Positions 4,460 to 55,490 of a stretch of DNA of 64,000 nt are shown piece after piece. The notes beneath the pieces were generated by a model, which had not been told where the DNA came from, did not search any database, and worked only from the letters and a program-made list of their open reading frames with translations. A program made the position numbers and the translations under genes. The DNA is from a phage, in the sequence record PZ534511.1, one strand, 5' to 3'. Each line of letters opens with the position of its first letter. Positions within the stretch are counted from its first letter, which is position 1.

Positions 4460-6771
4460 TCACCAAGGTAATTAAAAGTAACGGATGTGAAGTGGCATTC
4501 GATCCAGAACGTTTAAATAAGGCAGCTATTTTCGGTGACGACGGTAACGGCAATTGGTCACATATTGCACTGGATGCATACAAACGACTGTATGATGGAT
4601 GTACAACCAAAGAAGTTAACCAAGCTATTATAGACTCCTGTGTTAGCCGTAAAGACGAAGCACATTCCCGGATGGCTGGTCGTGTTCTTATTGGTCAGAT
4701 TTATAAAGAGGCTTTTGGAGGGTTTACAAAGATCCCTTCCTTACCATCATTTTACAACGACATGGTTGAGAAAGGGTATTGGGAGGATATGGGTTATAGC
4801 TTTACCGAGTTAAACACTTTAGGCACTGTTATTGATCACAGTAAAGATCTCGGTTATGGCTATGCAGTCCTTAAACAGTTTCGCGACAAATACGGGATCA
4901 AGGATACTCTTAAAGACACCTTGTTTGAATCTCCCCAGATGATGTTTATGGGGATAGCAATGGCTGTCATGAAGAATATGCCGAAAGAACGTCGTATCAA
5001 CGATGTTGTAAAATTATACACTTATCTGTCCGACTTAAAGATCAATGCCCCGACACCGTACTTAAACGGGCTGCGCACAGGTAAGACAGGGTATGCATCT
5101 TGTTGTGTAATAAAAGCTGACGATACAGCAAAATCTATTGGTGTGGCACGTGAAGTTGCGTACACAATGACGGTTAACCAGGCAGGTATCGGCTACTACT
5201 TATCCTCAAGATCTGCAGGCGATGGTGTTCGTGGTAACACTATTAAACATATGGGTAAGATTCCGTATTATCGAGGTATTGATGCTGGTGTTAAGGAGAA
5301 CAGACAACAATCACGTGGCGGTTCTGCAACAGTATCATTCCTTGCACTGGACCCGCAGATTGATGAGCTAATCCGTTTGAGAAACCCTATGACTGTTGCT
5401 TCAAAAAGAATCAACACCATGGACTACTCCATCGGTATTAATAGGTCGTTTATCAACCGTGTGGCTAAGAATTTGGATTGGATGCTTGTTTCTTATAAGC
5501 ACGCGCCTCAACTGCATGAGGGTATCTTCACCATGTCTATGGAGGAGTTTGATGCAGAGGTTGATCGTATTGCTAAAGATGACAGTATTCCTAAAACATG
5601 GATCCGGGCCAGAGATCTTGCTGTTGAACTGATCACGCAGCGTACTGAGGTGGGAAGGCTGTATGTATACTGGACAGATGAGATGAATAGACATACACCT
5701 TTTAAAGATGTGATCTATTCAAGTAACCTGTGTGCAGAAATAGCCCTCCCGACAAAAGGCTATTCAGATATGCGTAATATCTTCAAGTACGATGCTGATG
5801 ATGGAGAGGTTGCATTGTGCTTCCTGTCATCTCTTGTAGCTGGGAGGGTTACTCCAGAGGAGTATGAGGATGTTGCATACTATACGGTGCTTATGATTGA
5901 CAATGTTATGGAAATCATGACATATCCGTATGAAAATATGGAAAGCACAGTTAAAAAACGCAGATCCATCGGGGTTGGCCTTACCAATGTTGCACATTTT
6001 ATTGCCAGCCACAAGGTTACTTACGGATCTCCTGAAAGTAAACAGCTCGTTCACGATCTTGCAGAACTTCACAGCTACAGCTTGCATAAGGCAAGTTTAC
6101 GGTTGGCAAAAGAGCGTGGTGTCTGCGAGTGGATGCATAAAACAAAATATCCAGAAGGTTGGTTACCAATCGACACCTATAACAAAGAGGTCGATAGCGT
6201 GGTGAAAGATCCTTCTCTTAAACAGGATTGGGAAGGGTTACGTAAAGAAATCGTTGAAAATGGTGGGCTACGTAATAGCGTTCTTGAAGCATATATGCCT
6301 AATGAAAGCTCTTCGCTGGCAACAAACACCACTAACGGGGTTTATCCTGTCCGTGAGCACATTATCTTTAAAAAGTCGCCACAAGGGCAGGTGCTGTTTA
6401 TCGTTCCTGACTATGATGAGTTGAAAGAGTATTACACTTCGGCTTGGGACGTTGATACTAACGACATGATCGATATGTATGCTGTGATTCAAAAATTCAC
6501 AGGTCAGGCAATCAGCGCGGATTTATACATAGACTACACCAAGTTGAAAGATGGTAAAATTTCAATGAAGGAGCAGCTAGGGTACCTTATCCGTGCCACT
6601 AAATTCGGAATGAAGACATGGTATTATTTAAACTCTAGGGTTGGTGCTGGTGACTCCTTGGCAGAGGAACTTCATGCCAAGAAACAGGCTGAAGATGAAA
6701 CCAGAAAGAACTATCCTTTGATTGCAGATAGTTCAGTTGAAGATCCGTATTGCGAAAGCTGTGCACTATAA
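4456..6771 (+). CDS. nrdA: ribonucleotide reductase class I large subunit
   Basis: 771 aa; ATP-cone-like N-terminus; NLCAEI active-site region; C-terminal CESC cysteine pair; TTG start with GGAGG RBS. Confidence 0.9.
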   Translation: MITKVIKSNGCEVAFDPERLNKAAIFGDDGNGNWSHIALDAYKRLYDGCTTKEVNQAIIDSCVSRKDEAHSRMAGRVLIGQIYKEAFGGFTKIPSLPSFYNDMVEKGYWEDMGYSFTELNTLGTVIDHSKDLGYGYAVLKQFRDKYGIKDTLKDTLFESPQMMFMGIAMAVMKNMPKERRINDVVKLYTYLSDLKINAPTPYLNGLRTGKTGYASCCVIKADDTAKSIGVAREVAYTMTVNQAGIGYYLSSRSAGDGVRGNTIKHMGKIPYYRGIDAGVKENRQQSRGGSATVSFLALDPQIDELIRLRNPMTVASKRINTMDYSIGINRSFINRVAKNLDWMLVSYKHAPQLHEGIFTMSMEEFDAEVDRIAKDDSIPKTWIRARDLAVELITQRTEVGRLYVYWTDEMNRHTPFKDVIYSSNLCAEIALPTKGYSDMRNIFKYDADDGEVALCFLSSLVAGRVTPEEYEDVAYYTVLMIDNVMEIMTYPYENMESTVKKRRSIGVGLTNVAHFIASHKVTYGSPESKQLVHDLAELHSYSLHKASLRLAKERGVCEWMHKTKYPEGWLPIDTYNKEVDSVVKDPSLKQDWEGLRKEIVENGGLRNSVLEAYMPNESSSLATNTTNGVYPVREHIIFKKSPQGQVLFIVPDYDELKEYYTSAWDVDTNDMIDMYAVIQKFTGQAISADLYIDYTKLKDGKISMKEQLGYLIRATKFGMKTWYYLNSRVGAGDSLAEELHAKKQAEDETRKNYPLIADSSVEDPYCESCAL

Positions 6772-6778
6772 TTTTAAA

Positions 6779-6797
6779 GGGGCTTCGGCCCCATTTT
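6779..6797 (+). terminator. hairpin GGGGC-UUCG-GCCCC + AUUUU between nrdA and nrdB (possible attenuator)
   Basis: perfect 5 bp GC stem with UUCG loop followed by T-run. Confidence 0.4.
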
Positions 6798-6809
6798 AGA
6801 GGTAGAATA

Positions 6810-7898
6810 ATGGCTGTATTTAATGCTGAGAACACCGCTCATAAAACTGGTGACTATCCGCTGTTTCTGGGACAGCAAATGGGTATGTACGACTCTATCA
6901 ACAAAAAATATCCGCAACTGTTCGAACTGTACAAAAAACAAAAAGAACAAGACTGGGCAGAGGATGAAGTGGATTTGTCGCAATCTATTTCAGATTTTGT
7001 AACATGCTCCAAGTCAACTTATGATGTAATGGTGCAGACCTTGATGTGGCAATGGGAGGCTGATAGCGTTGCGGCAAGATCGATCATCTGCCTCTTTTCA
7101 CCATTCATCACTAATAGTGAGCTTTTCACTCTATTGATGAAACAGTCAGAGATTGAAGTTCTTCACGCACTAACTTACTCAGAGATTGTTAGACAATGCC
7201 TCCCCAATGCCCGTGAGATTATAGAAGAGATTCAGGAAAACCAAAACGTTCTGAGCAGATCTGGCGTTATTGTCAAATACATGCAAGAGCTTGAGGTTAT
7301 TGGTGCAAAATACCGACTGGATCCTTCTAGTGTTGAAGAAGATATTGTGCGGAAATGCATTCTTAGAGCGCTTTTTGCACTTTTAGCTCTGGAAAGTATT
7401 GAGTTTATTGCAAGTTTTGCATGCACTTTCGCAGTAGCTGAACAGGGTATTTTTGTTCAGGTGGCACAGCTTGTTCAAAAAATCATGCTTGACGAAATGC
7501 TACATTCGAAAGGTGATTTTGCCATCATTGATATCCTGCTTAACGATCCAGCATGGGAGAAAAGCTTCCTGGAGATAAAAGGGGAGTTAAAAGAGATTCT
7601 TGATGAAGTACGAACCAAGGAGTACGGTTGGAGCGACTATATTTTCAGCGAAGGAAGAGCGATTATAGGCCTTAACTCACCGTTGCTTAAAGAATGGGTT
7701 GACTATAACTGCTCACCGATTTATGATTACTACGATATCGACAAAGACTTTGTGCCGCCAACAAAGGACCCGCTACCGTTTATGCAGGTGTGGATGAAAC
7801 CTTCATTGCAACAGACGGCGAACCAAGAAATGTCGAACACTGACTACCGAGTCAACACAACTGTTAACGACGCTGAAGAAGAAATTTGGGAGTTTTAA
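6810..7898 (+). CDS. nrdB: ribonucleotide reductase class I small subunit
   Basis: adjacent to nrdA; ferritin-like helices with E/H-rich motifs; start moved to ATG with GAGG RBS. Confidence 0.85.
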   Translation: MAVFNAENTAHKTGDYPLFLGQQMGMYDSINKKYPQLFELYKKQKEQDWAEDEVDLSQSISDFVTCSKSTYDVMVQTLMWQWEADSVAARSIICLFSPFITNSELFTLLMKQSEIEVLHALTYSEIVRQCLPNAREIIEEIQENQNVLSRSGVIVKYMQELEVIGAKYRLDPSSVEEDIVRKCILRALFALLALESIEFIASFACTFAVAEQGIFVQVAQLVQKIMLDEMLHSKGDFAIIDILLNDPAWEKSFLEIKGELKEILDEVRTKEYGWSDYIFSEGRAIIGLNSPLLKEWVDYNCSPIYDYYDIDKDFVPPTKDPLPFMQVWMKPSLQQTANQEMSNTDYRVNTTVNDAEEEIWEF

Positions 7899-44009: not shown

Positions 44010-44588
44010 TTAGAAGTATTCATAGAGGTATCCATCGGGAGCTGGAATTTTTTCATGAATGTAGTAACCAACATATATTCCGGTTTCTCTGCTGCAAGAG
44101 TTGTGGGATACCCACTCTTTAAGAACGTTGCCATTCATGTCCAACCTCCTTACATTTTTGCACCGTCTACCGCTGGTGCTTCTATGTAACAAAATATCCT
44201 CTGTCTGCTTGTCTTTATTTTCTCCCCAGGTCGTTAAACGGATATTATCAAAAGAGTACCCTTTGAAATCATCTATCCTGTCACAAGAAGGCTTTTTCCT
44301 TTTGTCGTATCCGCTGGCTACCCACTGATCATACAACTCTTTGTAACCGTTCAGGTATAGCCACTCCTTAAACTCTTTTTTGGTGTAAGTCGGAGGAGGG
44401 TGACCTCTTTGCTTGCTGTTGCACTTTTGAGTCTTGTACAACACACGTATTACACCTTTTTCTGAAGAGTCTTTAGCAAATTGGTCAGCCTCCCTGCTGG
44501 CCTTCTTACAGCACTCTTTGCACGTTGATTTGTTGCTGGTATAGAAGTCGGAGGCCTCCTTGTCCTCCCCACAACGTTTGCATTTCAT
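44010..44588 (-). CDS. zinc-finger protein with degenerate HNH_3-like segment
   Basis: N-terminal CKRCG...CKECC; RIDDFKGYSFDNIRLTTWGEN resembles HNH_3 core but lacks the first His. Confidence 0.35.
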   Translation of the reverse strand: MKCKRCGEDKEASDFYTSNKSTCKECCKKASREADQFAKDSSEKGVIRVLYKTQKCNSKQRGHPPPTYTKKEFKEWLYLNGYKELYDQWVASGYDKRKKPSCDRIDDFKGYSFDNIRLTTWGENKDKQTEDILLHRSTSGRRCKNVRRLDMNGNVLKEWVSHNSCSRETGIYVGYYIHEKIPAPDGYLYEYF

Positions 44589-44596
44589 AACTGACC

Positions 44597-45823
44597 TTAG
44601 AAAGGGATCGAGTCATCGAACTCATACTGCGCCGGATTCTGATCCATCGGGTCATCTTCCTCATCATTTACAGGAGGAGCGTCTATAGTGTTTTGCTGTG
44701 GAGCAGCTTCCTGCTTGGCAGCTTGAGGTTCTTGATGGTCAGTGGACCCAGCACCGTTCTTGATCCAATCGTACAACGGCTCAGCCAGATTAGTCAAGAC
44801 ATCTTTTGCTTCTGCAGTAATTGCCGCTGCAAAATCCTCAACTTTCGTTTTCTTGTCAATACGGCGACAAGCGTTCAACACCGCATTACCGACACTGGCA
44901 CCTACTTCATCTTCGGTTCGGTTGGTGGCTTGAGCATACTCTTTCTTAAGCTCAATGGTGACTACGTGCAGTGTTTTAGCCACACCTAGTGGGTCGTCTA
45001 CCTTAAACCCGCGATCCAGGATGATTTGCAACGCGTTGATGCTATGTCCCGTCTCCACACCAATAGGGTCGTAAGAGGATTTACGCTTGCCACCAGAGCC
45101 TTGAGTGCCGTTCTCTGCCTTAGGGGGATAGGCTTTGAAACCACTGATAATGTTTCCGGTGTCTTTGTCAACAATGGCTGCAACACGACCACCTACCACC
45201 AGGTCTTTAAGCTGCTCATCAGTTACAACCATAGCACCTTCGCCAATCTTGTGGTCATTAACAGTAACCACGTTGCCAACAATCTGAGTCACATCGCCAT
45301 AGATGCGTAAAACGTCCTGATTGGCATTCTGCTGAGGTTTCTGCTTCTGGCCTTGTGATTGTGCACCTTGTTGCTGTTTTTGCTGCTGAGTCGCTGCTGG
45401 AGCCTCTCCTGCACCCAGCTTGACCATCTTAGCCAGTGAGCCTTTGTAATAGGTCTTACCGTTATGCTCGTTTGCCTTCAAAGGGATATTTACGATCCAT
45501 CCCGGCGTTACGGTTTCCCACTTGTCATCAATTTTAACAGAGACAGAGTCTTGATGACCAGGTTTAAGCAGCTTATCACCCATGCTGATCCAAACTTCTT
45601 CACCACCTTGAAGCAGGTTATCAGAGGAATCCAGTTCAGAAATCAGTAAAGAGATGGTGTGGCTGGATTCAATTTTCTTACCTTGCCACACAGTGGTTTT
45701 AATACCTGTTGTAGGATCAGCACCTTTGATAGGCTTGATGCTGACACGTTTAATCATGCCGTGAGCCAGTAAAACAGTTTCACGCGGATTCATCGGGTTA
45801 GCGAATTGTTGAATAACGCTCAT
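44597..45823 (-). CDS. putative single-stranded DNA-binding protein
   Basis: Gln-rich linker and acidic C-terminal tail ending DDSIPF (bacterial SSB tip DDDIPF); in replication module. Confidence 0.5.
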   Translation of the reverse strand: MSVIQQFANPMNPRETVLLAHGMIKRVSIKPIKGADPTTGIKTTVWQGKKIESSHTISLLISELDSSDNLLQGGEEVWISMGDKLLKPGHQDSVSVKIDDKWETVTPGWIVNIPLKANEHNGKTYYKGSLAKMVKLGAGEAPAATQQQKQQQGAQSQGQKQKPQQNANQDVLRIYGDVTQIVGNVVTVNDHKIGEGAMVVTDEQLKDLVVGGRVAAIVDKDTGNIISGFKAYPPKAENGTQGSGGKRKSSYDPIGVETGHSINALQIILDRGFKVDDPLGVAKTLHVVTIELKKEYAQATNRTEDEVGASVGNAVLNACRRIDKKTKVEDFAAAITAEAKDVLTNLAEPLYDWIKNGAGSTDHQEPQAAKQEAAPQQNTIDAPPVNDEEDDPMDQNPAQYEFDDSIPF

Positions 45824-46188
45824 TATTTGTCTCCTTGTTCTTCGTTAGTGTTTGCCGTATGTGCAAACCCTGCTTGAATTAATTTGTCCTGAACTTGAGC
45901 CAACAGCCCCATTGCAAAACTTGTAGTCCCAGAGAGGGCCATTAGCATATCTCGTTGTTGAGCTACCCAACCTAAGGCATAGTCCAAACGACGATATTTT
46001 TCTTCTTCACGCAGAGCCTGAAATAATTGTTCAGCCTCCGGTTGTTGTGTGAGCTCCTGAAGTCTTCCCATGAAAGAAGAAAGCACTAGCAAAAGAGACA
46101 CTTGATCTTTACTTAACCCTAAGAAAAATTCTTGAGGTTGTTCTTGCTCGTTCATTGCAACCGACGTTTGATCGTTCATTTGTTCCAT
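45823..46188 (-). CDS. hypothetical acidic protein
   Basis: ORF with GGAG RBS. Confidence 0.45.
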   Translation of the reverse strand: MEQMNDQTSVAMNEQEQPQEFFLGLSKDQVSLLLVLSSFMGRLQELTQQPEAEQLFQALREEEKYRRLDYALGWVAQQRDMLMALSGTTSFAMGLLAQVQDKLIQAGFAHTANTNEEQGDK

Positions 46189-46271
46189 TATGGAATCTCC
46201 GATTTTATTTGAACAACATAGAAGGAGACACTATTTTAGCATCCCCTTCTGCAAATTACAATAGGTATTTG

Positions 46272-46517
46272 TTAGCCAATCACTTCAAAAGTTCCCCAAT
46301 TCCCGTCTAGCAGGCAGGTGATCGGATCCCCATCGTCGTCAAAGATTTCAAAGTTTTCAGCATCCAGGATGTGGTCCTCGAACACAATACTCTCGTCGCC
46401 ACCACCAGAAATAACAGCGTATTCCTTACCTTGAGTCAAGTTTTGACACCCTTTGCCACCAAAACCTACTTCCACACAACGTACTTTCTGTCCTGCGCGA
46501 GCAACTGCTTCAGCCAT
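46272..46517 (-). CDS. hypothetical small protein
   Basis: ORF with AGGAG RBS. Confidence 0.45.
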   Translation of the reverse strand: MAEAVARAGQKVRCVEVGFGGKGCQNLTQGKEYAVISGGGDESIVFEDHILDAENFEIFDDDGDPITCLLDGNWGTFEVIG

Positions 46518-46534
46518 CTTAAGGTCTCCTGATA

Positions 46535-46837
46535 TTAATCGTCAAGTTCAAAATAGATTTTAACAGCTTCATCAAAGATTGGAATCCCGATGTTGTTGAT
46601 AAGCTGCCAAACTACCATATCTTTACCTGGGTCTGGGAGAATGTCAACCTTTCTCCATGCGCTGTATATCCAGTTTGGACCACCTTCTGCACTAACTGGC
46701 AGATTTTCACCAGCCTCCTGCAGATACTTATACAGCAAAAGATATTCTGGATACTCTAGAACACTGTCCTCTGTAGTATATAGCAGTTCACGGTATACTT
46801 TTAAAAACCCTGCTGGGGTGATGTTTTCAGTCTTCAT
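46535..46837 (-). CDS. hypothetical protein
   Basis: internal ATG with AGGAG RBS. Confidence 0.4.
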   Translation of the reverse strand: MKTENITPAGFLKVYRELLYTTEDSVLEYPEYLLLYKYLQEAGENLPVSAEGGPNWIYSAWRKVDILPDPGKDMVVWQLINNIGIPIFDEAVKIYFELDD

Positions 46838-47219
46838 TTGCTGCTTCTCCTGCATTCATCAGATCTGCCATAGCGTCACCCACGAAGAGAACAACCACAT
46901 CGTTGACAGCGTCAGCATCATCTTTATTGACGTTGCTGAATTTAGGACACACAGCAATGATCATATAGACACCGTTACCAACCTGAACTGTCCGTGTGGT
47001 GCACATCATGGCGGTATTTGTGCCTTCTTTGAAGGCGAAGCCTTGAAGACGCTCCTCTAAAGTGTTACCGGTAGATTTCAGAAGCGCCAGCTCGTCCAAG
47101 TCATAGATGATATCTCCGGAAGTTAGTGTTGCCTTGCCATCAGACACCATAATAACTCCATCAGCACCGTCAAGCTTAGAGGCTTCAAAGATATCAATAT
47201 CCCAAATATTTTTCATCAC
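46827..47219 (-). CDS. hypothetical protein
   Basis: ORF. Confidence 0.45.
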   Translation of the reverse strand: MMKNIWDIDIFEASKLDGADGVIMVSDGKATLTSGDIIYDLDELALLKSTGNTLEERLQGFAFKEGTNTAMMCTTRTVQVGNGVYMIIAVCPKFSNVNKDDADAVNDVVVLFVGDAMADLMNAGEAANED

Positions 47220-47476
47220 GCTTCCTCGTCGTCTAAGGAGTTGAAGATTTCACCGAAGTATTCTAAGACTTCTAGCTCCCGTGTGGTGCAGAAAACACAG
47301 TCACCGTTGTCATCCTCGATAACGGCCTCTTTACCCAGCACATCTACTTCAAGTTTATCGTTCAACAGGACGGCCCCTGTGTAAACTTTGTCAGCTGTGC
47401 AGTCCCGAAAAGCGGAGTCCTTCTCCAGATAGTCTGGCTTAACCTTGGCTTTAATTCGTTGATATTGTTTGGTCAT
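47216..47476 (-). CDS. hypothetical small protein
   Basis: internal ATG with AAGGAG RBS. Confidence 0.4.
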   Translation of the reverse strand: MTKQYQRIKAKVKPDYLEKDSAFRDCTADKVYTGAVLLNDKLEVDVLGKEAVIEDDNGDCVFCTTRELEVLEYFGEIFNSLDDEEA

Positions 47477-47539
47477 TGCTATGGTCTCCTTTTTCTTAGA
47501 TGGGGCCATTATATCTGGCCCCATCTTTCTTGTCAAGTA

Positions 47540-47794
47540 TTAATGTTCAGGTTTTACAAAAACCACTTCGTTAACGGTGCACCAGACAGAATCTCCTTCA
47601 TCATCTTTAAAGGTAAGGCACTGGGCTGAGTTTTCCAGCTCATCAATCTCTTCTTGTGATAAAGGAGCCCCTTCTTCCAAAAGGGCTTTTACTAAAGGGT
47701 TCTCACAAAACTCTGCTTCATAAATAGCACCAAGCGTGCAATCTTTAAAAGCTCGGTCATTTGCAACGCATGCTGGTTTCAACATGATTTTCAT
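47540..47794 (-). CDS. hypothetical small protein
   Basis: ORF with GAGGAG RBS. Confidence 0.45.
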   Translation of the reverse strand: MKIMLKPACVANDRAFKDCTLGAIYEAEFCENPLVKALLEEGAPLSQEEIDELENSAQCLTFKDDEGDSVWCTVNEVVFVKPEH

Positions 47795-47870
47795 TTTAGC
47801 AGTCTCCTCAATTATTTAAAAATCAACTCTCTGTTTGTGTGAAGCATCTTATATCTAATCTTACTTCTTG

Positions 47871-48242
47871 TCAATGACTATTTTCAATCAGCCACACAGG
47901 GTCGAGGTAAATTTGTTGGCGTGTTGCCCAATGACAAACTTCATTGTACGTCTGAACCTCTTTGTCTGTCAATTCACGAATAGGCTCATCTATACCCTCA
48001 TTTTTGTGGTAATCCCATTCTGCGTCTATCTCCCACAGCCATGACTTGTTGTCACCACGCTTACGCACACAGAAGTCACCAGGGCGGCCTGCCAGTGCAT
48101 TTAAGAACTCGTTCTCCACTCGCTCCTGGAGAATACTGAGGAGCAAAACGTTGGAGCATGATCGTAAAATATGCTTCAGCTCACAGTCATCGATCTCAAC
48201 TTCGATACGTTGTTTGACTGTGTGGGTACCTTTTACTAACAT
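47871..48242 (-). CDS. hypothetical protein
   Basis: ATG with GAGGAGG RBS (track ORF used TTG). Confidence 0.45.
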   Translation of the reverse strand: MLVKGTHTVKQRIEVEIDDCELKHILRSCSNVLLLSILQERVENEFLNALAGRPGDFCVRKRGDNKSWLWEIDAEWDYHKNEGIDEPIRELTDKEVQTYNEVCHWATRQQIYLDPVWLIENSH

Positions 48243-48252
48243 TCTACCTCCT

Positions 48253-48447
48253 CTAAACGAACTCTGCAAGGGTTGTGTTGTTCACTGCACCACAGTAAAT
48301 GGAGTATCCCAGCCCATTAGAGTGCAGAAACCACGGAGTGCCGAAATTATCTTTCACGTAGACATCGCCGTTGCTTGTAAAGGGCCAATATTCTTCACCA
48401 AGGGTGAAATACCTACTCATACCCTCAGCCAGATACTTTACTTTCAT
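48253..48447 (-). CDS. hypothetical small protein
   Basis: ORF with AAGAGGA RBS. Confidence 0.4.
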   Translation of the reverse strand: MKVKYLAEGMSRYFTLGEEYWPFTSNGDVYVKDNFGTPWFLHSNGLGYSIYCGAVNNTTLAEFV

Positions 48448-48671
48448 AGGTCCTCTTCAACAGCTACAAACTTGGCAAGCAGGGTGGTTCCGTAGATATG
48501 ATACTCACCGTTTGCCAGATGGGAGATAAACCAGGCAATCCCTTCCTCGTCTTTAATCATCTTGTTTGCACGATCTTTATCGTAATAAACCTCGTAGGTC
48601 TTTCCTTCTTTAAAGAAGGACAGGTCTGTCATCTTTTCTTCTACAAAAGTAGCTTTAACCAAAGTTGTCAT
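48444..48671 (-). CDS. hypothetical small protein
   Basis: ORF with AAGGAG RBS. Confidence 0.4.
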   Translation of the reverse strand: MTTLVKATFVEEKMTDLSFFKEGKTYEVYYDKDRANKMIKDEEGIAWFISHLANGEYHIYGTTLLAKFVAVEEDL

Positions 48672-48952
48672 TGATCGGTCTCCTTCTTGTTAAGTCTGAA
48701 TACTGCAATAATAGCATTCCCAAGGTGCAGTGTCAAATCATTTCCAAGATACCACAACATTCCACGGTCATCTTTAATGAAAGGGTAACAATCTGGTGCC
48801 TTCCAGACATTGTACACTTTCCCAACCTGAAAGAAATCAGGCCCTGTTGGGATTTTGGTGCCAGGCCACACTTGAGATACCTGAACACACTCCACCTGCA
48901 TAATAACAGGAATAGTCATGGATGTAAATGTTTTTGTTGGTTCTACTACCAT
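48668..48952 (-). CDS. hypothetical protein
   Basis: internal ATG with AAAGAGGAG RBS; avoids overlap with polymerase exon 2. Confidence 0.4.
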   Translation of the reverse strand: MVVEPTKTFTSMTIPVIMQVECVQVSQVWPGTKIPTGPDFFQVGKVYNVWKAPDCYPFIKDDRGMLWYLGNDLTLHLGNAIIAVFRLNKKETDQ

Positions 48953-49001
48953 AAAAGTCTCCTCTTTGCTCAACAACACTTCCATGTGTTGATAGTTTAC
49001 A

Positions 49002-49355
49002 TTAGTGACAATCACCCCAATTACGACCACACAAGTATTCACCTGTGATCTGGAACGGGACTCCCATCATTTTAGAAGCTTGCCAGAAGCAATGCACCAC
49101 CATTTCACCCACAGGGCTCCAGATAAGTTCAAGCTTTCCGTCATCGTTCAGGATAGGATCGTACACCGTGTTTCCGTCTCTGTCAACCACTTCGTTTCCG
49201 TCCTCATCCTTGCGTGCCTTTTTGTACTTATGACCGTCGAACACATGAAGTTTGGCTTCCTGCTCTGCCTTAAATGCTTCCAATTCTTCAATTGTGTCGA
49301 AGGTGTACACAGTCTTATACTTAGGCGTGTCAGGGACCTGAAGTTGGTACTCATC
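49002..49355 (-). CDS. DNA polymerase (family A), C-terminal segment / exon 2
   Basis: begins DEYQLQV (completes motif C HDE) and ends GRNWGDCH-stop, matching family A C-terminus (Pol I ...NWDQAH); preceding ATG has no RBS. Confidence 0.6.
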   Translation of the reverse strand, partial: DEYQLQVPDTPKYKTVYTFDTIEELEAFKAEQEAKLHVFDGHKYKKARKDEDGNEVVDRDGNTVYDPILNDDGKLELIWSPVGEMVVHCFWQASKMMGVPFQITGEYLCGRNWGDCH

Positions 49356-50198
49356 CATCTGTTCAGGTAGGTCGTTAAGCTACCCCGCACCATTACGTGC
49401 ATAGCCATACAGTTTCCTGTATGGATCGGACTACCTCACTGCCTTGGTAACAAGGCACCTCCCATTTCGACCGCACTTGCTGGCCTACTCTACTCGCTTC
49501 TTCACACCAACCTGTGTTGGAGCTATGCTTTCGATAGTCTCTGAACGTTACTACCAGGTGTAGTTTTTAGAGATATGTTTCCACTGTCTTCTTTGCTTTA
49601 TAGCCCTGACGGTCTCATAAGGATATCCAAGATCCCTAATCTCGCATTGTCGTAGACCACTCTGCAACAGTTCGCAAATCTCTATTACCTCATCTTCTGT
49701 CAGCACAGCGTTGGCATTATACTCACCAACTGGCCTTACTCTGAGGTCATTATCATAGGCGTGCTTGATATTTCCACCAGGGGTGGTCCATTCCAGGTTC
49801 CAGTATGCATTGTTGTACTTATTCCCATCCTTATGGTTCACCCATGTGAGCCTTTCAGGATCCGGGTTTGATACAAAGCATTCAGCAACCAGGTGGTGGA
49901 CACCTTTTGTGCACTGCTTCCCCTCGATTAGCATGGTTACGCAAAGGTAACCTCTACCATTATCAAAACAAAACATTGTTGTATGATCACGTTTCGATAA
50001 AGGTATTGTTCCATCATCAAACACGGTATACCCGTGATAATCAGCTGTTCTAGCCATTTTAACTACACCCCTTTAGTCTTCGCTGCGGATTAGCATATTG
50101 AGCTTTTACCATACTCAGGTGTAAAAGTCAACTTAGCTTTCCCGTCAATTAAAGAGGTTATTCGACATAGATCACTCTATGAAGCCACAATGTTATTT
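49356..50198 (-). mobile_element. putative group I intron carrying an HNH homing endonuclease ORF
   Basis: interrupts polymerase exactly within motif C; exon ends in U, insertion ends in G; HNH ORF with own RBS; GC-rich structured 3' segment. Confidence 0.5.
49551..50057 (-). CDS. HNH homing endonuclease (HNH_3 type)
   Basis: LTWVNHKDGNKYNNAYWNLEW HNH_3 core; located inside polymerase insertion. Confidence 0.75.
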   Translation of the reverse strand: MARTADYHGYTVFDDGTIPLSKRDHTTMFCFDNGRGYLCVTMLIEGKQCTKGVHHLVAECFVSNPDPERLTWVNHKDGNKYNNAYWNLEWTTPGGNIKHAYDNDLRVRPVGEYNANAVLTEDEVIEICELLQSGLRQCEIRDLGYPYETVRAIKQRRQWKHISKNYTW

Positions 50199-52622
50199 AT
50201 GGTAATAGATAATACGACGGACACCTTCATCGTACCACCCACGCTTCACCATTTGGTGGTGCATGAGTATCCCAACTAAGTCACACAGCGATGCACCACC
50301 ATTCTGTTGGTATGCATTAAGTAAAGAGTGTTTAGATCGGGTCCAGATAGCATGACCATCAAAAGAGTAGATAAACTTCTTACCCGTTGCTTCCCAGAAT
50401 TTCTCCAGATCCTCTTTACGCCCCTTAAGACCAGGGTTGGCATCCCAAAGTGCATCGATTACCCTTTGTCCCAACTCTGGAGAGATGTCCAGCATATCTG
50501 CAACTTTATCTTTTTGTGCCCCGTACATAACCCCATACGTGATAGGTTTACCGTCGTTACGAGACACCTCTCTGCCTGCTACTTTTGTATATGCCTCAGC
50601 ATTGTTTTGGTGTGCGTCCCCGTTACTTACAACATCATAATACAAGCCGTTGTCGAACTCAAAGGCACCCCAAGCCCCGATAAGCTGCTCTAAGTTGGAC
50701 CCGTCAATACCGATCTGAAAGTATCCAGGAGGAACACCCCACAGACTACGCATCTCTTTACCCATAACCACTTTAGGAGATGGTTTAGGCATGTTTGCAC
50801 AAATACTGTGTTTCTGTCGTGAAGTGTTTGTTAACCCAGAACTTTTAGCAGGAAGCTTATGGTCAATCTTCAAACGTGGGTGATTAAGAAGACCAGTATC
50901 AACCTTATCCTCCTTGATTGGATCAAGGACCGATCTGCGGTTTCGCAATGATAACCACAAGACGATATCTTTAGCCATCTCTCCGTTCAATTTTTCAAGA
51001 TTCGGGCATAGGTGTCCAAACGTATCTTTCAGTTGCGGAGAAGTAATAAGTGCCCTAGCTTTTCTACGTATTTTCCCGAATACTTCCTTTTTAATCCTTT
51101 CGGAGTTAGGAAAGCTTCGGAACTTGTGCACGGTTGTCTGGAACTTAGCATCAGTTTTGTTCCAGAAGTTGATAATCAGGTCACAATACTCTGACTCTAA
51201 AAGCTCGTCCATATATGCATATACTCGTGCATCAACATCTGCATCAGGTAGAGCTTTCTTCTTGCTGTCTTTAGTTACATCCTTAGTTCTCCACATTGTC
51301 GGAAGCCAACCAGCACTGATCAGGTATCGCTTAATGTCGTCCTGGTTGCTGATTTTCATAGGTATCTTGCAGTCCGGCATTCGCTTCTGCTGTAGATCAC
51401 TTATTGCCTGATCCATTAGCTCTTTAGGTAAAGGTTGTGGTGTGGAGGTGCCCTTAATATAGCCTCTCAAGAAATCAGCCATCTTATCGGGGTCTTTGCA
51501 GCCCATCTCTTCACACCATTTTATCCCTATCTTACTGACATCTCCTGTAGAGGTAAATGCTCGCTTAGGTGGGGCTTTGAACTCTAAAGCGCTCATGTCT
51601 ACAGGGTAGCCAAGCTTATCTTTTAACCATTTCCAGCCATTATTGGAAATTGTCCCATCTTGGTTGAACGGCTTTTCAGGGAATTTAGGCCGCTGAGATA
51701 TTGATAACTCTTTTAAAGGAAGTTGAGGTTCAACACGATCAGCGATCTCTTTCATCCACGCATCACAGCGGTCACGTAAAGCAATAGCCCCGTCTATGTC
51801 GAAATACACACCCTGACGGGCCTGCAGCTCCATCAGGAAGTGCTGCAGCATGCCTCGGCGTAATGCGTTCTTCCAGGTGATCTTCTTGAACCCTTTCGGC
51901 TTCTCTTTGGCAGGATCGTACATAAAGTTCTGCATGTCAGATTTGCCGTAGAATACACCTTTTGATTCCGCTACCAGCTCTTTCCAGAGCAGCTCCTGGA
52001 TGATAACGTCCTCGAATACACGATCCACATACTTCCACAACGGAAGATCGCGCCAGTCATCAATTTGAACTTTCTGGTTACCAAGGGCGTAGCCCCATGC
52101 CATAAGGCCGTGAGGACCAACAGGCTGCATTTTCTTAGTAACCGGGTTGAATACAGAGTCCGGACAACCTTTTGGTAAAGGGCGATCAGGCCACAAAATT
52201 CGACTCATCGCCAACGTATCAAACAGGTTAACCTGGTGGTCGTTGATAGTCCCCATGCATTTAGGATCACGGAACATATCAAAATGAATACCGGATAATC
52301 TTTCCATCAGCATAAAGTCATAACTGTAGCAGTTATGGCAGTTCAAAGCTGTTGGTGACCAGTCGGAATTGCCTGTAAGCCAACCTTCCAACTCCGAAAA
52401 ATCTGCTATGCGAACTTCAAAATCTTTATAAAGAGTTTTCTTTGCCAGAATGAAGTTCTTGGCCTTTTCTATATCCTCCTCGGAGTAGTGTGTGCGGTCA
52501 TTTAGAGGAAGGAACAGCATAAAACGGTTCTTATTCAGCTCTTTAAACAGACCGCAGTGATAATAAAGATCTGGGTCTTCCAAAAGCCCAGAGGCCTCCA
52601 GATCGAAGCACCAATTACTCAT
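50199..52622 (-). CDS. DNA polymerase (family A), N-terminal segment / exon 1
   Basis: Exo I FDLEASGL; motif A-like GIDGSNLEQL; motif B-like RNDGKPITYGVMYG; ends ...RRIIYYH just before expected HDE. Confidence 0.8.
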
Positions 52623-53353
52623 ACTGTCCCCTCCTGTTTCTTCTCAGCATTCTTTCTTGCAGCTATTGCATCGTCCCTATTCTTGAAATACCCAAGGCAT
52701 TTCCTTTTACCATCTACATAAATTCTGGCTACCCATCTTTCATGGGTTTTATCCCAATTCACCCCTGAGCAACCGCTGGTATTATTATACTGCACGGCTC
52801 TTCCACTCTTGTGCGAAAAACCATTATCTTCGAAGAACTTTCTTGCCCACTCTGCCTCTTCAAAAGTTCTGTACTGGCCTAGCCAGACCCTTTCCCCTAC
52901 AGAGTCTGTGCCTTGAGCTATCCATGCATCTCTTTCTTCAGAATAGTGCACCCCGACCCTGCCAGATTTGTTGTTGCTACGAGGTATCTTGCAACTTTTC
53001 TTTTTGTTATCTGTGGGCTCGAGTAGTTGCAAATTTTGAATACTGTTATCAGCCACACCACCTGTTTCCCTTATCTCCTTGATGTGGTCAACCTCATACC
53101 CTTCCGGTACAGGGCCGTTAAACATTTCCCAGATTATGACGTGGGCACCTTTAGTGCAATGCTTTCCTAGACTAACTACAGGCCTGCCATCAGCATCTTG
53201 CCCCTTGTCAGCTCTGGAGCCTGCTGAAGTTTTAACATATCCTACACCGCTACCTGCCAGAATGTCTATCTTCCAAAAAAGATTTTGACCGTCATACTCC
53301 AGTATCTCTGACCACAGGTGGTTGGCTACACAGTGGTCTCTGAACTCGTTCAT
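52619..53353 (-). CDS. free-standing HNH endonuclease with two AP2-like DNA-binding domains
   Basis: EVDHIKE...NSIQNLQLL HNH core; two RVGVHY/SGVNWD...W.A.I...G AP2-like repeats. Confidence 0.7.
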   Translation of the reverse strand: MNEFRDHCVANHLWSEILEYDGQNLFWKIDILAGSGVGYVKTSAGSRADKGQDADGRPVVSLGKHCTKGAHVIIWEMFNGPVPEGYEVDHIKEIRETGGVADNSIQNLQLLEPTDNKKKSCKIPRSNNKSGRVGVHYSEERDAWIAQGTDSVGERVWLGQYRTFEEAEWARKFFEDNGFSHKSGRAVQYNNTSGCSGVNWDKTHERWVARIYVDGKRKCLGYFKNRDDAIAARKNAEKKQEGTV

Positions 53354-53411
53354 AAAGTGTTCTCCTTAAAGGGGAGGCGGTTGTACTACCCCTCCCACTC
53401 TTTGTTAAACA

Positions 53412-55490
53412 TTAAAAAGGTGTTTCATCATCTTCAAAACCGGGGACCGGATCAGAAGATGGATCATCGTACTGGAGGTCTTCCTGCGTGTCAACAGGCT
53501 TAATAGTAGGAGTTACAACCTTATCAGCTACAACCTTGCCCATAGGTGTTTCTACAACTGCATGCTCTTGGTCCTCAAACATGGCCTGAGGTCTCCAAAC
53601 AACCTCCCCACCTTCTCCGTCTGTAAACATCTGCATTTCTTTGTCCCAGTACCAATTACTGGCATCATGGAACTTACCTGTATGTGGGTCCATAACCAAA
53701 GTATCCGCAATACCCAATGTTTTTGCTGGACGGTTTTTAAGACCTACTAAACGGACACGACCACGAGAACGATCTACCATTTCTTCAGCCTCAACACCTA
53801 TGACTACCCAACTCAACTGTTCAAGCCCAGCCGATCCTCGCAAATTCTCTTTTCGCACAGGATACCAGAAAGGTAACGGGTTACCATCCTTGTCCTTAGG
53901 AGGCACAATCTCTGTACGTTTGAGGTGAGCGATCACTAGGATAAACACGTTAAACTGCTTACAAAACGCAGCCAGTTGGGTCATAGCCATGTCCAGCTCT
54001 TTTCGCTCATCCTTAACATTAAGCCCTGAAATTACCATGGACAGGTGATCCAGCACAATATAACGGCAATGGTACAGGCAAACCATTTGCTTAAGCTTGG
54101 TAATCAACTCGTCCACCGGAATAGATCCGAAATGTTTGAACACTTTGATTTTTCCAGCTTTTGCCCATGATTGGTGAATCTCTGCGTGTTCTTGATCAGT
54201 TAAAAACTGGCTAGGATCTTCAACAAACTCTTTAACATCAAACCCTAACTGGTTTGCATACAAGGAGTTAATTGCTTCCTCTGGGTCCTCCTCAAGATGA
54301 ATCATGCATAGACGATCATCCTCTTCGTAATCATCAGCCTTTGGACATGTCGGGTCCATTAGGTATCTTGCAATACAGTGTTCCAGTTTTTTAGCTACAG
54401 TTGTTTTACCGCCTCCTGATGGACCTGTAAGCATTACAAGTGTCCCTTTGTGCAAGCCTTTCAGCATTTTTTGCAGTTTTGGGAACTCTGCGCTGATATC
54501 TACCCCGTTGGAAGTCTTTTTCCGCAAAGATTCGATAGAGAAGTCTTCTAAATCCGACACAGCATCCGGCACATACTTAACAGGATGCCGGAACATGTTT
54601 ACAATATCTTCCAGCTTTTTAGCCTTCAGCATGTCACGGATATCTTTTACACCATCAGGGTCGTTTACCTCGCCAGGATATTCCACGTGGTAAACGTTAT
54701 CAGCCATCAAAAATGCTGCGATATTATGTGTGGCTTCAACACCTTTGATAACGTGTTTTTGCTTCTCTATCTCGTTAGCTGCATCGTTGTCCATTGCAAG
54801 GACCACTGTTCCGTAGCTACGGATAAATTTCTCATTGTTTGCAAAAGTATCTACTGCGTTTGCACATCCACAGTTAATTCCAACAAAAGGTAGGCAGGGT
54901 TTTCCTGCCAGATCACCACCGTTGATAACTGCGTCGATCCCGTCCTGGACCTCTTTAGCCCACTGCTTCACTTTTGCCGGGGCTTTAGCGTTGGTGAGAA
55001 TCCCTTTTACTTGTATCTGATATGCAGCCTGCCATGCTGCAATAACATCACCTTCTCCCTCACAAACGTTAATCTGCTTACGGTTGTTGGAAGATGCACA
55101 CAGCTTTTGACCAAACATCTGGGAGTTAGCCTTCACTATGCCTACTACAGACCAGTGCCCTTTCTGCTCTTTCGGCTTAGTCCAGTCACGCTTTTTGAAA
55201 CCGGACAGATTTCCGTAGCGGTCGTAATATGGGAAATATGTTGCAGTGACTGTCACACCATCTTCTTGGGACAATGCTGATCGCACACCAAAATATTGTG
55301 CAGCCATCAGACCGATATTTTGTTGTGGGACAGGGACAATTTTAGTATTTTCTAAAACAGTCTCTACAGTTTCAACCTCTTTTTCATCACGATAGTCTCG
55401 TTTCATACTACCCCCACTTTTGTATCTTGTTGCAACCGGGTTTGGCTCACCGAAACGGTTGTATGCAGATGCCATAAATTTACTTCCCAT
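53412..55490 (-). CDS. primase-helicase (T7 gp4-like: TOPRIM primase + DnaB-family helicase)
   Basis: TOPRIM VCEGEGD and MDNDAANE; Walker A GPSGGGKTT; acidic C-terminal tail ending ETPF. Confidence 0.8.
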   Translation of the reverse strand: MGSKFMASAYNRFGEPNPVATRYKSGGSMKRDYRDEKEVETVETVLENTKIVPVPQQNIGLMAAQYFGVRSALSQEDGVTVTATYFPYYDRYGNLSGFKKRDWTKPKEQKGHWSVVGIVKANSQMFGQKLCASSNNRKQINVCEGEGDVIAAWQAAYQIQVKGILTNAKAPAKVKQWAKEVQDGIDAVINGGDLAGKPCLPFVGINCGCANAVDTFANNEKFIRSYGTVVLAMDNDAANEIEKQKHVIKGVEATHNIAAFLMADNVYHVEYPGEVNDPDGVKDIRDMLKAKKLEDIVNMFRHPVKYVPDAVSDLEDFSIESLRKKTSNGVDISAEFPKLQKMLKGLHKGTLVMLTGPSGGGKTTVAKKLEHCIARYLMDPTCPKADDYEEDDRLCMIHLEEDPEEAINSLYANQLGFDVKEFVEDPSQFLTDQEHAEIHQSWAKAGKIKVFKHFGSIPVDELITKLKQMVCLYHCRYIVLDHLSMVISGLNVKDERKELDMAMTQLAAFCKQFNVFILVIAHLKRTEIVPPKDKDGNPLPFWYPVRKENLRGSAGLEQLSWVVIGVEAEEMVDRSRGRVRLVGLKNRPAKTLGIADTLVMDPHTGKFHDASNWYWDKEMQMFTDGEGGEVVWRPQAMFEDQEHAVVETPMGKVVADKVVTPTIKPVDTQEDLQYDDPSSDPVPGFEDDETPF

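Follow-up and report, generated by a model that had tools for sequence, protein, structure and literature searches.

The locus described here raises the question of whether a large phage could operate a replisome of the T7 type, in which the helicase and the protein that binds single-stranded DNA (SSB) each carry an acidic tail for holding a replication partner. It occupies positions 44,597-55,490 (10.9 kb) of a 64,000-nucleotide stretch of phage DNA (sequence record PZ534511.1; hereafter the window) and encodes a gp4-like primase-helicase, a family A DNA polymerase and an SSB-like protein of 408 amino acids (aa), all on the minus strand like every other gene within 42-58 kb. Vequintavirus (rV5-like) coliphages, among them WalterGehring (Bas51) and FFH2, match the region at 96% identity, and at least 80% of it is covered in 112 phage records; many relatives match just 93-94% of it, in 2 pieces. 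The complete 140.7-kb genome of WalterGehring, a 96% identical phage, was used as the reference for whole-genome gene checks. A first-pass annotation, made from the letters of the window alone, had proposed a T7-like replisome signature on the basis of acidic, Phe-ended tails on the primase-helicase and the SSB-like protein. According to the analysis below, a T7-style tail handle is well supported in this replisome, and the tips of both tails are in sequence of the type found at the C-terminus of bacterial SSB (SSB-Ct).

Conserved acidic tips on the primase-helicase and the SSB-like protein

Both tails were found as the first-pass annotation had read them. The SSB-like open reading frame (ORF) at 44597..45823 (-), with its stop codon at 44597-44599, encodes 408 aa and ends ...NPAQYEFDDSIPF, the tip EFDDSIPF being encoded at 44600-44623; the primase-helicase ORF at 53412..55490 (-) encodes 692 aa and ends ...DPVPGFEDDETPF (GFEDDETPF), with the tip FEDDETPF at 53415-53438. 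Each tip closes an acidic C-terminal arm that is predicted to be disordered. In the SSB-like protein the arm spans residues 359-408 (44600..44749 (-); isoelectric point (pI) 4.05; predicted local distance difference test (pLDDT) score <50) and holds 13 Asp and Glu versus 1 Lys or Arg. The arm of the primase-helicase spans residues 640-692 (53415..53573 (-); pLDDT 34-47), and the last 70 residues of this protein hold 18 Asp and Glu versus 4 Lys and Arg.

Endings of this kind are rare in these phages. When the window was translated in six frames, 342 ORFs reached 50 aa, and PF is the ending of 2 of them, namely the SSB-like protein and the primase-helicase; their homologues are the sole annotated genes of the whole WalterGehring genome in which an acidic tail ends PF. 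Just two other annotated products of that phage have an acidic ending with an aromatic last residue: the ribonucleotide reductase beta subunit (...EEEIWEF) and a hypothetical protein of 141 aa (...AYRDY). In the window, the class I ribonucleotide reductase beta gene, at 6750-7898 (+), ends ...AEEEIWEF; the acidic C-terminal tail of this subunit is the known alpha-binding tail, and it is unrelated to the replisome tails.

The tips are also conserved. The family of the 408-aa protein comprised 56 close homologues and, at 50% clustering, 259 representatives, of which 147 were listed; PF is terminal in 112 of the 147 listed representatives (exactly DDDIPF in 28), and most of the non-PF members are fragments, carry one extra residue or bear a 15-residue extension. 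In an alignment of 43 family members with a mean identity of 23%, G108, G312, P407 and F408 are the only invariant columns and DxDDDIPF is the consensus tip, which reads DFDDDIPF among the closer homologues, some of them ending EPPMDFDDDIPF. Likewise, 111 of 120 primase-helicase homologues end PF (DFDNDTPF, DLDSDSPF, EDEDCPF, DEDIDEPF and others), the 30 residues before the tip being hypervariable. Judged from these alignments, both tips are under selection, because PF is retained in most homologues within variable disordered tails.

In a minority of the SSB-like and primase-helicase homologues, PF is followed by one and the same extension of roughly 15 residues (A-P-I-G-L-Q-Y-x-x-x-x-I-Y/H-x-L), which was seen in the SSB-like proteins P0017, P0044, P0048, P0051, P0178, P0214, P0279 and P0292, in the helicases P0069, P0078, L032, L034 and L035, and also in the loci L010, L015, L017, L021 and L050. 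SSB-Ct pockets normally need the free carboxylate of the terminal Phe, and this extension would bury it. An explanation of the extension (APIGLQY..IYAL) as an artefact of downstream homing-endonuclease insertion was considered and rejected, because the downstream genes differ between loci; the window contains no remnant of it.

When IMG/VR was scanned with the helicase alignment, the two tails could be placed in a wider family of replication modules. The scan returned 80 loci at 34-97% identity, from which 77 helicase genes were recovered; 72 of these end in Phe, and in 68 two or more of the preceding seven residues are acidic, with gp4-like endings such as NDVAEF, EVPDDF and FDNVDF. Where at least 9 kb of downstream sequence was available (40 loci), a family A polymerase was present in 36, and in 25 the same strand encodes a protein of 150 aa or more ending acidic-xPF. 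The bearers of the latter tail fall into three sequence-unrelated families: phrog_4477, which includes the 408-aa protein; phrog_2544 (298-388 aa); and the gp2.5-like phrog_112 (203-244 aa), whose tail bearers end ...DSPF, ...QLPF or ...SLPF. A relationship between phrog_2544 and phrog_4477 was tried and rejected, as hhalign limited the alignment of the two profiles to the last 10 residues. phrog_2544 is therefore put forward as a candidate for a second unannotated SSB family, whose one common element with phrog_4477 is the tail. In one such locus (L042, IMGVR_UViG_650627111_000001, 125,956 bp), the helicase ends DQDGDEPF and a 388-aa phrog_2544 protein ends DLDDSIPF. From these comparisons, the SSB body has been exchanged repeatedly (at least three times), with the tip, the helicase tail and the polymerase staying together. 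Exchange of the body under a constant tail is therefore the strongest argument for a conserved function of the tail in the replisome, and an acidic-xPF ending on three unrelated SSB families is what a conserved tail-docking mechanism would predict.

In the T7 genome (NC_001604), gp2.5 ends ...EEADEDGDF and gp4 ends ...TDWSNDTDF, and the window tips share only 1-3 of nine positions with these tails. Their identity to the E. coli SSB ending (MDFDDDIPF) is 6/9 for the SSB-like protein and 4/9 for the helicase, and the closer-homologue consensus of the 408-aa family, DFDDDIPF, is the E. coli SSB ending itself. The proposed T7-like signature consequently holds for the T7-type polymerase and helicase and for the acidic, Phe-ended character of the tails, but not for the tips, which are of SSB-Ct type. 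This makes host SSB-binding proteins equally plausible partners of the tips. Across the wider family, the endings show a continuum between gp2.5-type and SSB-Ct-type tips.

The phi92-like relatives provided two further observations on such tips. Their nucleotidyltransferase (phrog_10174), whose gene has the polymerase on one side and the SSB-like gene on the other, ends ...DDDIPW or ...EEDDIPW (L023 8866-9549 (+), L024 8959-9552 (+)), which brings to three the protein types of the module that bear an SSB-Ct-like tip. At L023 10877-10915, the 39 nucleotides (nt) coding EEPPMDFDDDIPF* match the 3' ends of ssb genes on E. coli plasmids at 92% identity (E 6e-6). This likeness may reflect transfer of a tail segment or only constraint at the protein level, and it is not decisive for a horizontal origin of the tip because the peptides are identical.

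The 408-aa protein as a probable phage SSB

The 408-aa protein is probably a phage SSB, with an architecture unmatched by any curated SSB family, because no other SSB could be found in the near-identical 140.7-kb genome. The annotation of WalterGehring lists neither an SSB nor a sliding clamp over the entire 140.7 kb and calls the homologue of the 408-aa protein 'hypothetical'. When this genome was searched by tblastn, E. coli SSB hit only the tail of this same protein (E 0.04), and T7 gp2.5 gave nothing significant. The original rV5 paper listed a ligase, a polymerase and two helicases, an SSB not being among them (PMC3606486). A few GenBank records (JLBYU08, ESCO5, ESCO9 and ESCO37) label homologues 'putative single-stranded DNA-binding protein', and most others say hypothetical.

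Sequence searches gave little else. The protein has no sequence relative in Pfam, NCBIfam or the PDB and belongs to phrog_4477, a family of 'unknown function'; its OB domain did not match the SSB model PF00436 in the Pfam and NCBIfam searches, and homology to gp2.5 or DUF2815 proteins found no Pfam or PHROG_112 match. A PDB search with the single sequence and with the 43-member family profile recovered nothing but the tail of E. coli SSB (1eqq), in a non-significant match confined to the last ~24 residues (phmmer and family profile).

The predicted structure was more informative. The AlphaFold2 model (mean pLDDT 75) divides the protein into five segments, the last of which is the acidic arm. 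The N-terminal domain (residues 1-140; 45404..45823 (-); pI 8.8) adopts an OB fold of SSB type, nearest to SSBs, and contains a conserved GKTYY motif in which K123 and Y126 are nearly invariant among closer homologues. It is followed by a Gln-rich disordered linker (residues 141-169; 45317..45403 (-)) with a pLDDT of 30-37 and 86% Q/P/G/A/S/N, and then by a small beta-barrel domain (residues 170-235; 45119..45316 (-)) with strands within 171-232 at pLDDT 81-88, which is missing from the short family members of about 270-310 aa (P0052-P0056). A four-helix bundle (residues 253-355; 44759..45067 (-)), with helices at 253-270, 278-299, 304-321 and 328-355 (pLDDT 83-96), holds the most conserved motifs of the family, GVETGHxxNA and VGxAVLNAC; G255, G259, H260, N263, G312 and L316 are invariant in the bundle among closer homologues. 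An SSB-like assignment of this protein had been tied to the presence of an OB fold. Such a fold is present in the predicted model, but its matches to solved structures are weak: Foldseek against the PDB gave no match at E <= 0.001, the best being weak OB-fold matches from E 0.018, and gp2.5-like entries followed at E 0.07-0.23. Enc34 and DUF2815 SSBs of the gp2.5-like kind are among the weak OB-fold similarities. Against BFVD, it returned uncharacterised homologues and a DUF2815 protein at E about 3e-3. Two hallmarks of known SSBs were also recovered, namely the disordered linker plus tip of SSB-type proteins (DDSIPF in the window copy, with PF invariant in the family alignment) and the acidic C-terminal tail with terminal Phe of gp2.5, which is conserved in the 408-aa family.

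Helicase, polymerase and a proposed docking of the tips

The primase-helicase is a relative of T7 gp4, which was its main match in the PDB (E 4.9e-16) next to one weak Twinkle match (E 8e-5). Its helicase domain is homologous to that of gp4 (DnaB_C, E 1.9e-13; also AAA_25), and the whole protein matches phrog_239 primase/helicase at E 6e-160. In the AlphaFold2 model (pLDDT 77), a disordered N-terminus (1-36) precedes a primase/TOPRIM part at ~40-305 (pLDDT about 90) and a helicase part at ~330-635, after which the disordered arm begins. Pfam Toprim gave no match at E <= 0.01; nevertheless, the TOPRIM acidic residues in EGEGD (E144, E146) and DND (D234, D236), together with D283, are invariant in 25 homologues, and the motifs align with EGEID and DMD of gp4. 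The Cys4 zinc-binding domain is missing: two CxxC motifs were found in none of the 120 homologues and in none of the 77 wider-family loci, and the first ~130 residues contain no Cys, whereas T7 gp4 has CDNC...CYVC. In the phi92-like relatives, by contrast, the helicase retains the zinc-binding domain and ends ...GSY. The pairing of 120 zinc-less homologues (111 ending PF) with zinc-bearing phi92-like helicases ending ...GSY was the reason for considering that the PF tip recruits host DnaG to offset the loss of the zinc finger. This idea was downgraded, since the wider family lacks the domain whether its members end ...PF or acidic-F, and it is further weakened by T7 gp4, which has both the zinc-binding domain and the tail.

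The polymerase is of family A and its product ends NWGDCH, as the first-pass annotation had stated; it is not, however, a single ORF, and its two exons flank an 843-nt group I intron. One ORF (50193..52622 (-), 809 aa) ends ...RRIIYYHK* and the other (49002..49358 (-), 118 aa) reads MDEYQLQV...NWGDCH. The intron (49356..50198 (-)) interrupts motif C (H|DE) and matches the full length of the Rfam Intron_gpI model RF00028 at 49406-50208 with 29.4 bits (E 3.5e-5), which is under the gathering score of 50. Its 5' junction reads ...UAC CAU|AAAUAA, the 5' splice site lying after the U of ...CCAU, and its 3' end reads ...ACAGAUG|GAUGAG. Excision of 49356-50198 joins exon 1 (50199..52622 (-); residues 1-808, ending ...RRIIYYH; Pfam DNA_pol_A E 8.7e-7, phrog_17) to exon 2 (49002..49355 (-); residues 809-925, DEYQLQV...NWGDCH; phrog_8888 DNA polymerase, E 1.3e-58) in a 925-aa product, ...IIYYH|DEYQLQV..., in which motif C is restored. 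The spliced product is colinear with the polymerase of the intron-less IMG/VR contig L006 (16 substitutions, no gap). It has the Pol A palm and fingers motifs, HDE as motif C and a C-terminal His as in T7 gp5 (...NWAICH), and T7 gp5 was its only PDB sequence relative (E 1.9e-16, aligned to gp5 residues 468-658). An HNH homing-endonuclease ORF (49551-50057 (-); HNH_3 match) lies inside the intron. Like other phage group I introns with HNH genes in DNA polymerase genes, this one sits in the conserved catalytic motif C and carries the HNH ORF in a loop; nothing unusual was found in it, and the WalterGehring gene is already annotated as a joined coding sequence. Relatives carry further polymerase interruptions, that of L008 being in three pieces. 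Many helicase and polymerase homologues are ~300 aa longer, at a query coverage of only ~80% (polymerases of L016, L021 and L024, 1104-1253 aa; helicases P0062-P0064 and P0104-P0151, 975-1025 aa), which suggests inteins or other insertions.

Taken together, these features are consistent with a T7-type minimal replisome in a large rV5-like myovirus, which would consist of a zinc-less gp4-like primase-helicase, an intron-split gp5-like polymerase and a non-canonical SSB. The disordered acidic arm of ~50 residues ending ...D-x-P-F-COOH on both the helicase and the SSB could act as a flexible tether, and its terminal Phe with the free carboxylate would dock in a pocket of the partner beside basic residues. 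The partner would be held at the fork, because the hexameric helicase and the SSB-coated lagging strand show many tail copies, and it could be passed between sites and displace the SSB while advancing; polymerases would in this way be tethered at the fork and helped to displace the SSB. When no DNA is bound, the tail may fold back onto the DNA-binding groove of the SSB itself. In this model, the tips of both arms would dock on a common replisome receptor, most likely the phage polymerase because the helicase-polymerase pair is homologous to that of T7, and the SSB tip would additionally engage host SSB-binding proteins; the latter is very probable, because the tip is essentially that of the host SSB. 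We give this model a probability of roughly 55%.

Several observations weigh against a common receptor of this kind. In T7, the tails dock on two basic patches of gp5: the first lies close to the thioredoxin-binding domain, and the second, the front patch, is formed by K587, K589, R590, R591, K594 and R599 (PMC12593628; PMC12339929). The polymerase described here keeps two of the six front-patch residues, with K748 and K749 in the places of R590 and R591; it has lost the 12-residue loop that bears K587 and K589 in T7, and where T7 has the thioredoxin-binding insertion it has an unrelated one of greater length. Because of these three differences, a docking geometry identical to that of T7 is not supported; the tails may instead dock on a different basic surface. 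SSB tips invariably have I, V or L at position -3, where helicase tips have T, S, C or E, and the two tails may therefore lack a common site, or they may differ in affinity. The phi92-like relatives keep the SSB tip DFDDDIPF while their helicase ends ...GSY. Furthermore, the binding of single-stranded DNA by the 408-aa protein is suggested only by its predicted fold. Finally, the exact bacterial consensus DFDDDIPF, in some cases EPPMDFDDDIPF, occurs across very divergent phages, which would fit selection by the host SSB interactome at least as well as co-evolution with a fast-diverging polymerase.

This last point leads to the explanation by host mimicry only, in which the tips would recruit or sequester host SSB-binding proteins (chi/Pol III, DnaG, RNase HI, ExoI, RecQ, PriA and Topo III being the candidates) at phage forks and would not bind the phage polymerase. 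It could account for a family consensus identical to E. coli SSB, with some members matching its last 11-12 residues, for window tips nearer to that protein than to the T7 tails, for the 39 tip-coding nucleotides resembling plasmid ssb genes in a phi92-like relative, and for a polymerase in which the T7 docking patches are not conserved; two papers also document SSB-Ct as a hub motif (PMC5872125, PMC3632105). It accounts less well for the helicases, whose tips are without the hydrophobic -3 residue of SSB-Ct and whose tails in the wider family are mostly acidic-F endings without Pro (NDVAEF, EVPDDF), as in T7 gp4, or for the linkage of the tails to a T7-type polymerase module (36/40 loci). A phage with genes for a polymerase, helicase, ligase and exonucleases of its own, as annotated in the 140.7-kb relative, should also have a limited need for host fork proteins, and mimicry is in any case compatible with the docking model as far as the SSB tail is concerned. 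On balance, mimicry alone appears possible but clearly less likely than docking on a common replisome receptor. A coincidental or non-functional shared ending, which has the shortness of the motif as its one support, has practically no probability: the restriction of PF to 2 of the 342 window ORFs and its retention amid hypervariable tails (111 of 120 and 112 of the 147 listed) speak against it, as does the invariance of P407 and F408 at 23% mean identity, and the conservation effectively refutes it.

The remaining alternative concerns the 408-aa protein, which might not be the replicative SSB and might instead serve otherwise in recombination or at the fork, with an SSB-type tip, for instance as a helicase loader, an origin-binding protein or a mediator like RecO, leaving host SSB to coat the single-stranded DNA. 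The protein does have two domains beyond classical SSBs, the barrel and the four-helix bundle, the latter being its most conserved part; no SSB family matches it at the sequence level, and non-SSB proteins of related modules, such as the helicase and the nucleotidyltransferase ending DDDIPW, bear tips of this kind. We nevertheless consider such a role unlikely, given the SSB-like layout, in which an OB domain of basic character is combined with low-complexity linkers and an acidic tip, the presence in sister phages of a gp2.5-like SSB with a similar tip, encoded on the helicase strand no more than 10 kb downstream, and the fact that the 140.7-kb genome holds no other SSB candidate.

Neighbouring genes, implications and comparison with known systems

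Directly upstream of the SSB-like gene, and translationally coupled to it by an ATGA overlap of its stop with the SSB-like start, an ORF at 45823..46188 (-) encodes a helical 121-aa protein (phrog_7310) with no PDB, Pfam or NCBIfam match. A phrog_7310 homologue holds this position in L006-L018 and in relatives down to ~23-39% identity, and the 121-aa protein may therefore be a partner of the SSB-like protein. Three homing-endonuclease genes (44010-44588, 49551-50057 and 52619-53353) lie in or beside the three core replisome genes, and their presence is variable among close relatives. Apart from the intron ORF, these are an Endonuclease VII/HNH-type gene (44010..44588 (-); phrog_1035 endonuclease VII, E 6e-33), located 8 nt downstream of the SSB-like gene and annotated as 'putative homing endonuclease' in WalterGehring, and a free-standing HNH-AP2 gene (52619..53353 (-); HNH_3 E 5e-12, AP2 E 1.7e-6) between the primase-helicase and the polymerase, which is missing from many close relatives, e.g. 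Shigella phage CM1. Among the database relatives, ~16-21 records that carry the name 'Campylobacter phage' and C. jejuni as host (MG0656xx) show 96-99% identity to E. coli rV5-like phages in this region, and their host label looks doubtful.

The tail principle itself is already known from T7 and from bacterial SSB, and some annotators had guessed 'SSB' for the 408-aa protein. What is added here is a structural and comparative case for phrog_4477 as an SSB of unusual architecture, the SSB-Ct-like tip on the helicase of this clade, and the recurrence of the tail over three unrelated SSB families in T7-type modules. Many candidates for phage therapy belong to the rV5-like, PVP-SE1-like, phi92-like and related large myoviruses, and most records of these phages list no SSB; phrog_4477 is probably that missing SSB, with an architecture that differs from the SSB sequence families in the searched libraries. 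For T7-type replisomes more generally, the suggested rule is that the acidic Phe-ended tail is constant and the SSB body exchangeable. A tail tip grading into SSB-Ct would link the work on T7 gp2.5 and gp4 tails with that on the SSB-Ct interactome, and if docking sites were shared with host SSB partners, inhibitors of the SSB-Ct pocket and phage counter-defence would intersect here.

A more far-reaching proposal, which we regard as speculative and improbable, is that the SSB-type tip on both proteins copies the handle of host SSB and that the phage replisome is thereby plugged into the host SSB interactome. The SSB-like protein would then replace host SSB as the hub, and the helicase hexamer would show six SSB-like tips, drawing host factors to the phage fork, with DnaG, RNase HI and the chi subunit as candidates. 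The C-terminal domain of DnaG binds SSB-Ct, and host recruitment could in that case offset the phage primase's lack of a zinc-binding domain. The phi92-like nucleotidyltransferase with its DDDIPW tip would follow the same logic, and phrog_4477 would have a further interaction module in its conserved four-helix bundle.

Three known systems are available for comparison. The gp2.5-like SSBs (phrog_112, DUF2815, Enc34 SSB) resemble the 408-aa protein in the acidic-xPF endings of those in sister phages and in a weak Foldseek similarity, but the 408-aa protein is much larger and without sequence homology to them. With bacterial SSB, the 408-aa protein shares an N-terminal OB fold and a Pro/Gln-rich, low-complexity disordered linker leading to the tip. 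It differs in an OB domain that matches no SSB sequence, in the extra barrel and four-helix domains, and in the window tip, where Ser takes the place of the third Asp (EFDDSIPF). A similar tip is here also found on the helicase, and bacterial replicative helicases are not known to bear one. The T7 replisome differs in its tips (...DTDF or ...DGDF, versus ...xPF here), in its smaller gp2.5, to which the larger, multi-domain SSB here has no sequence similarity, in the zinc-binding domain that is lacking from the helicase here, in a polymerase gene that is here interrupted by a group I intron, and in the genome, which is here that of a myovirus of roughly 137-140 kb. On the other hand, the polymerase and helicase of this phage have their sequence homologues in gp5 and gp4, the annotation of the 140.7-kb relative contains no sliding clamp, the polymerase likewise ends in His, and, as in T7, the helicase and the SSB both carry a disordered acidic tail with a terminal Phe.

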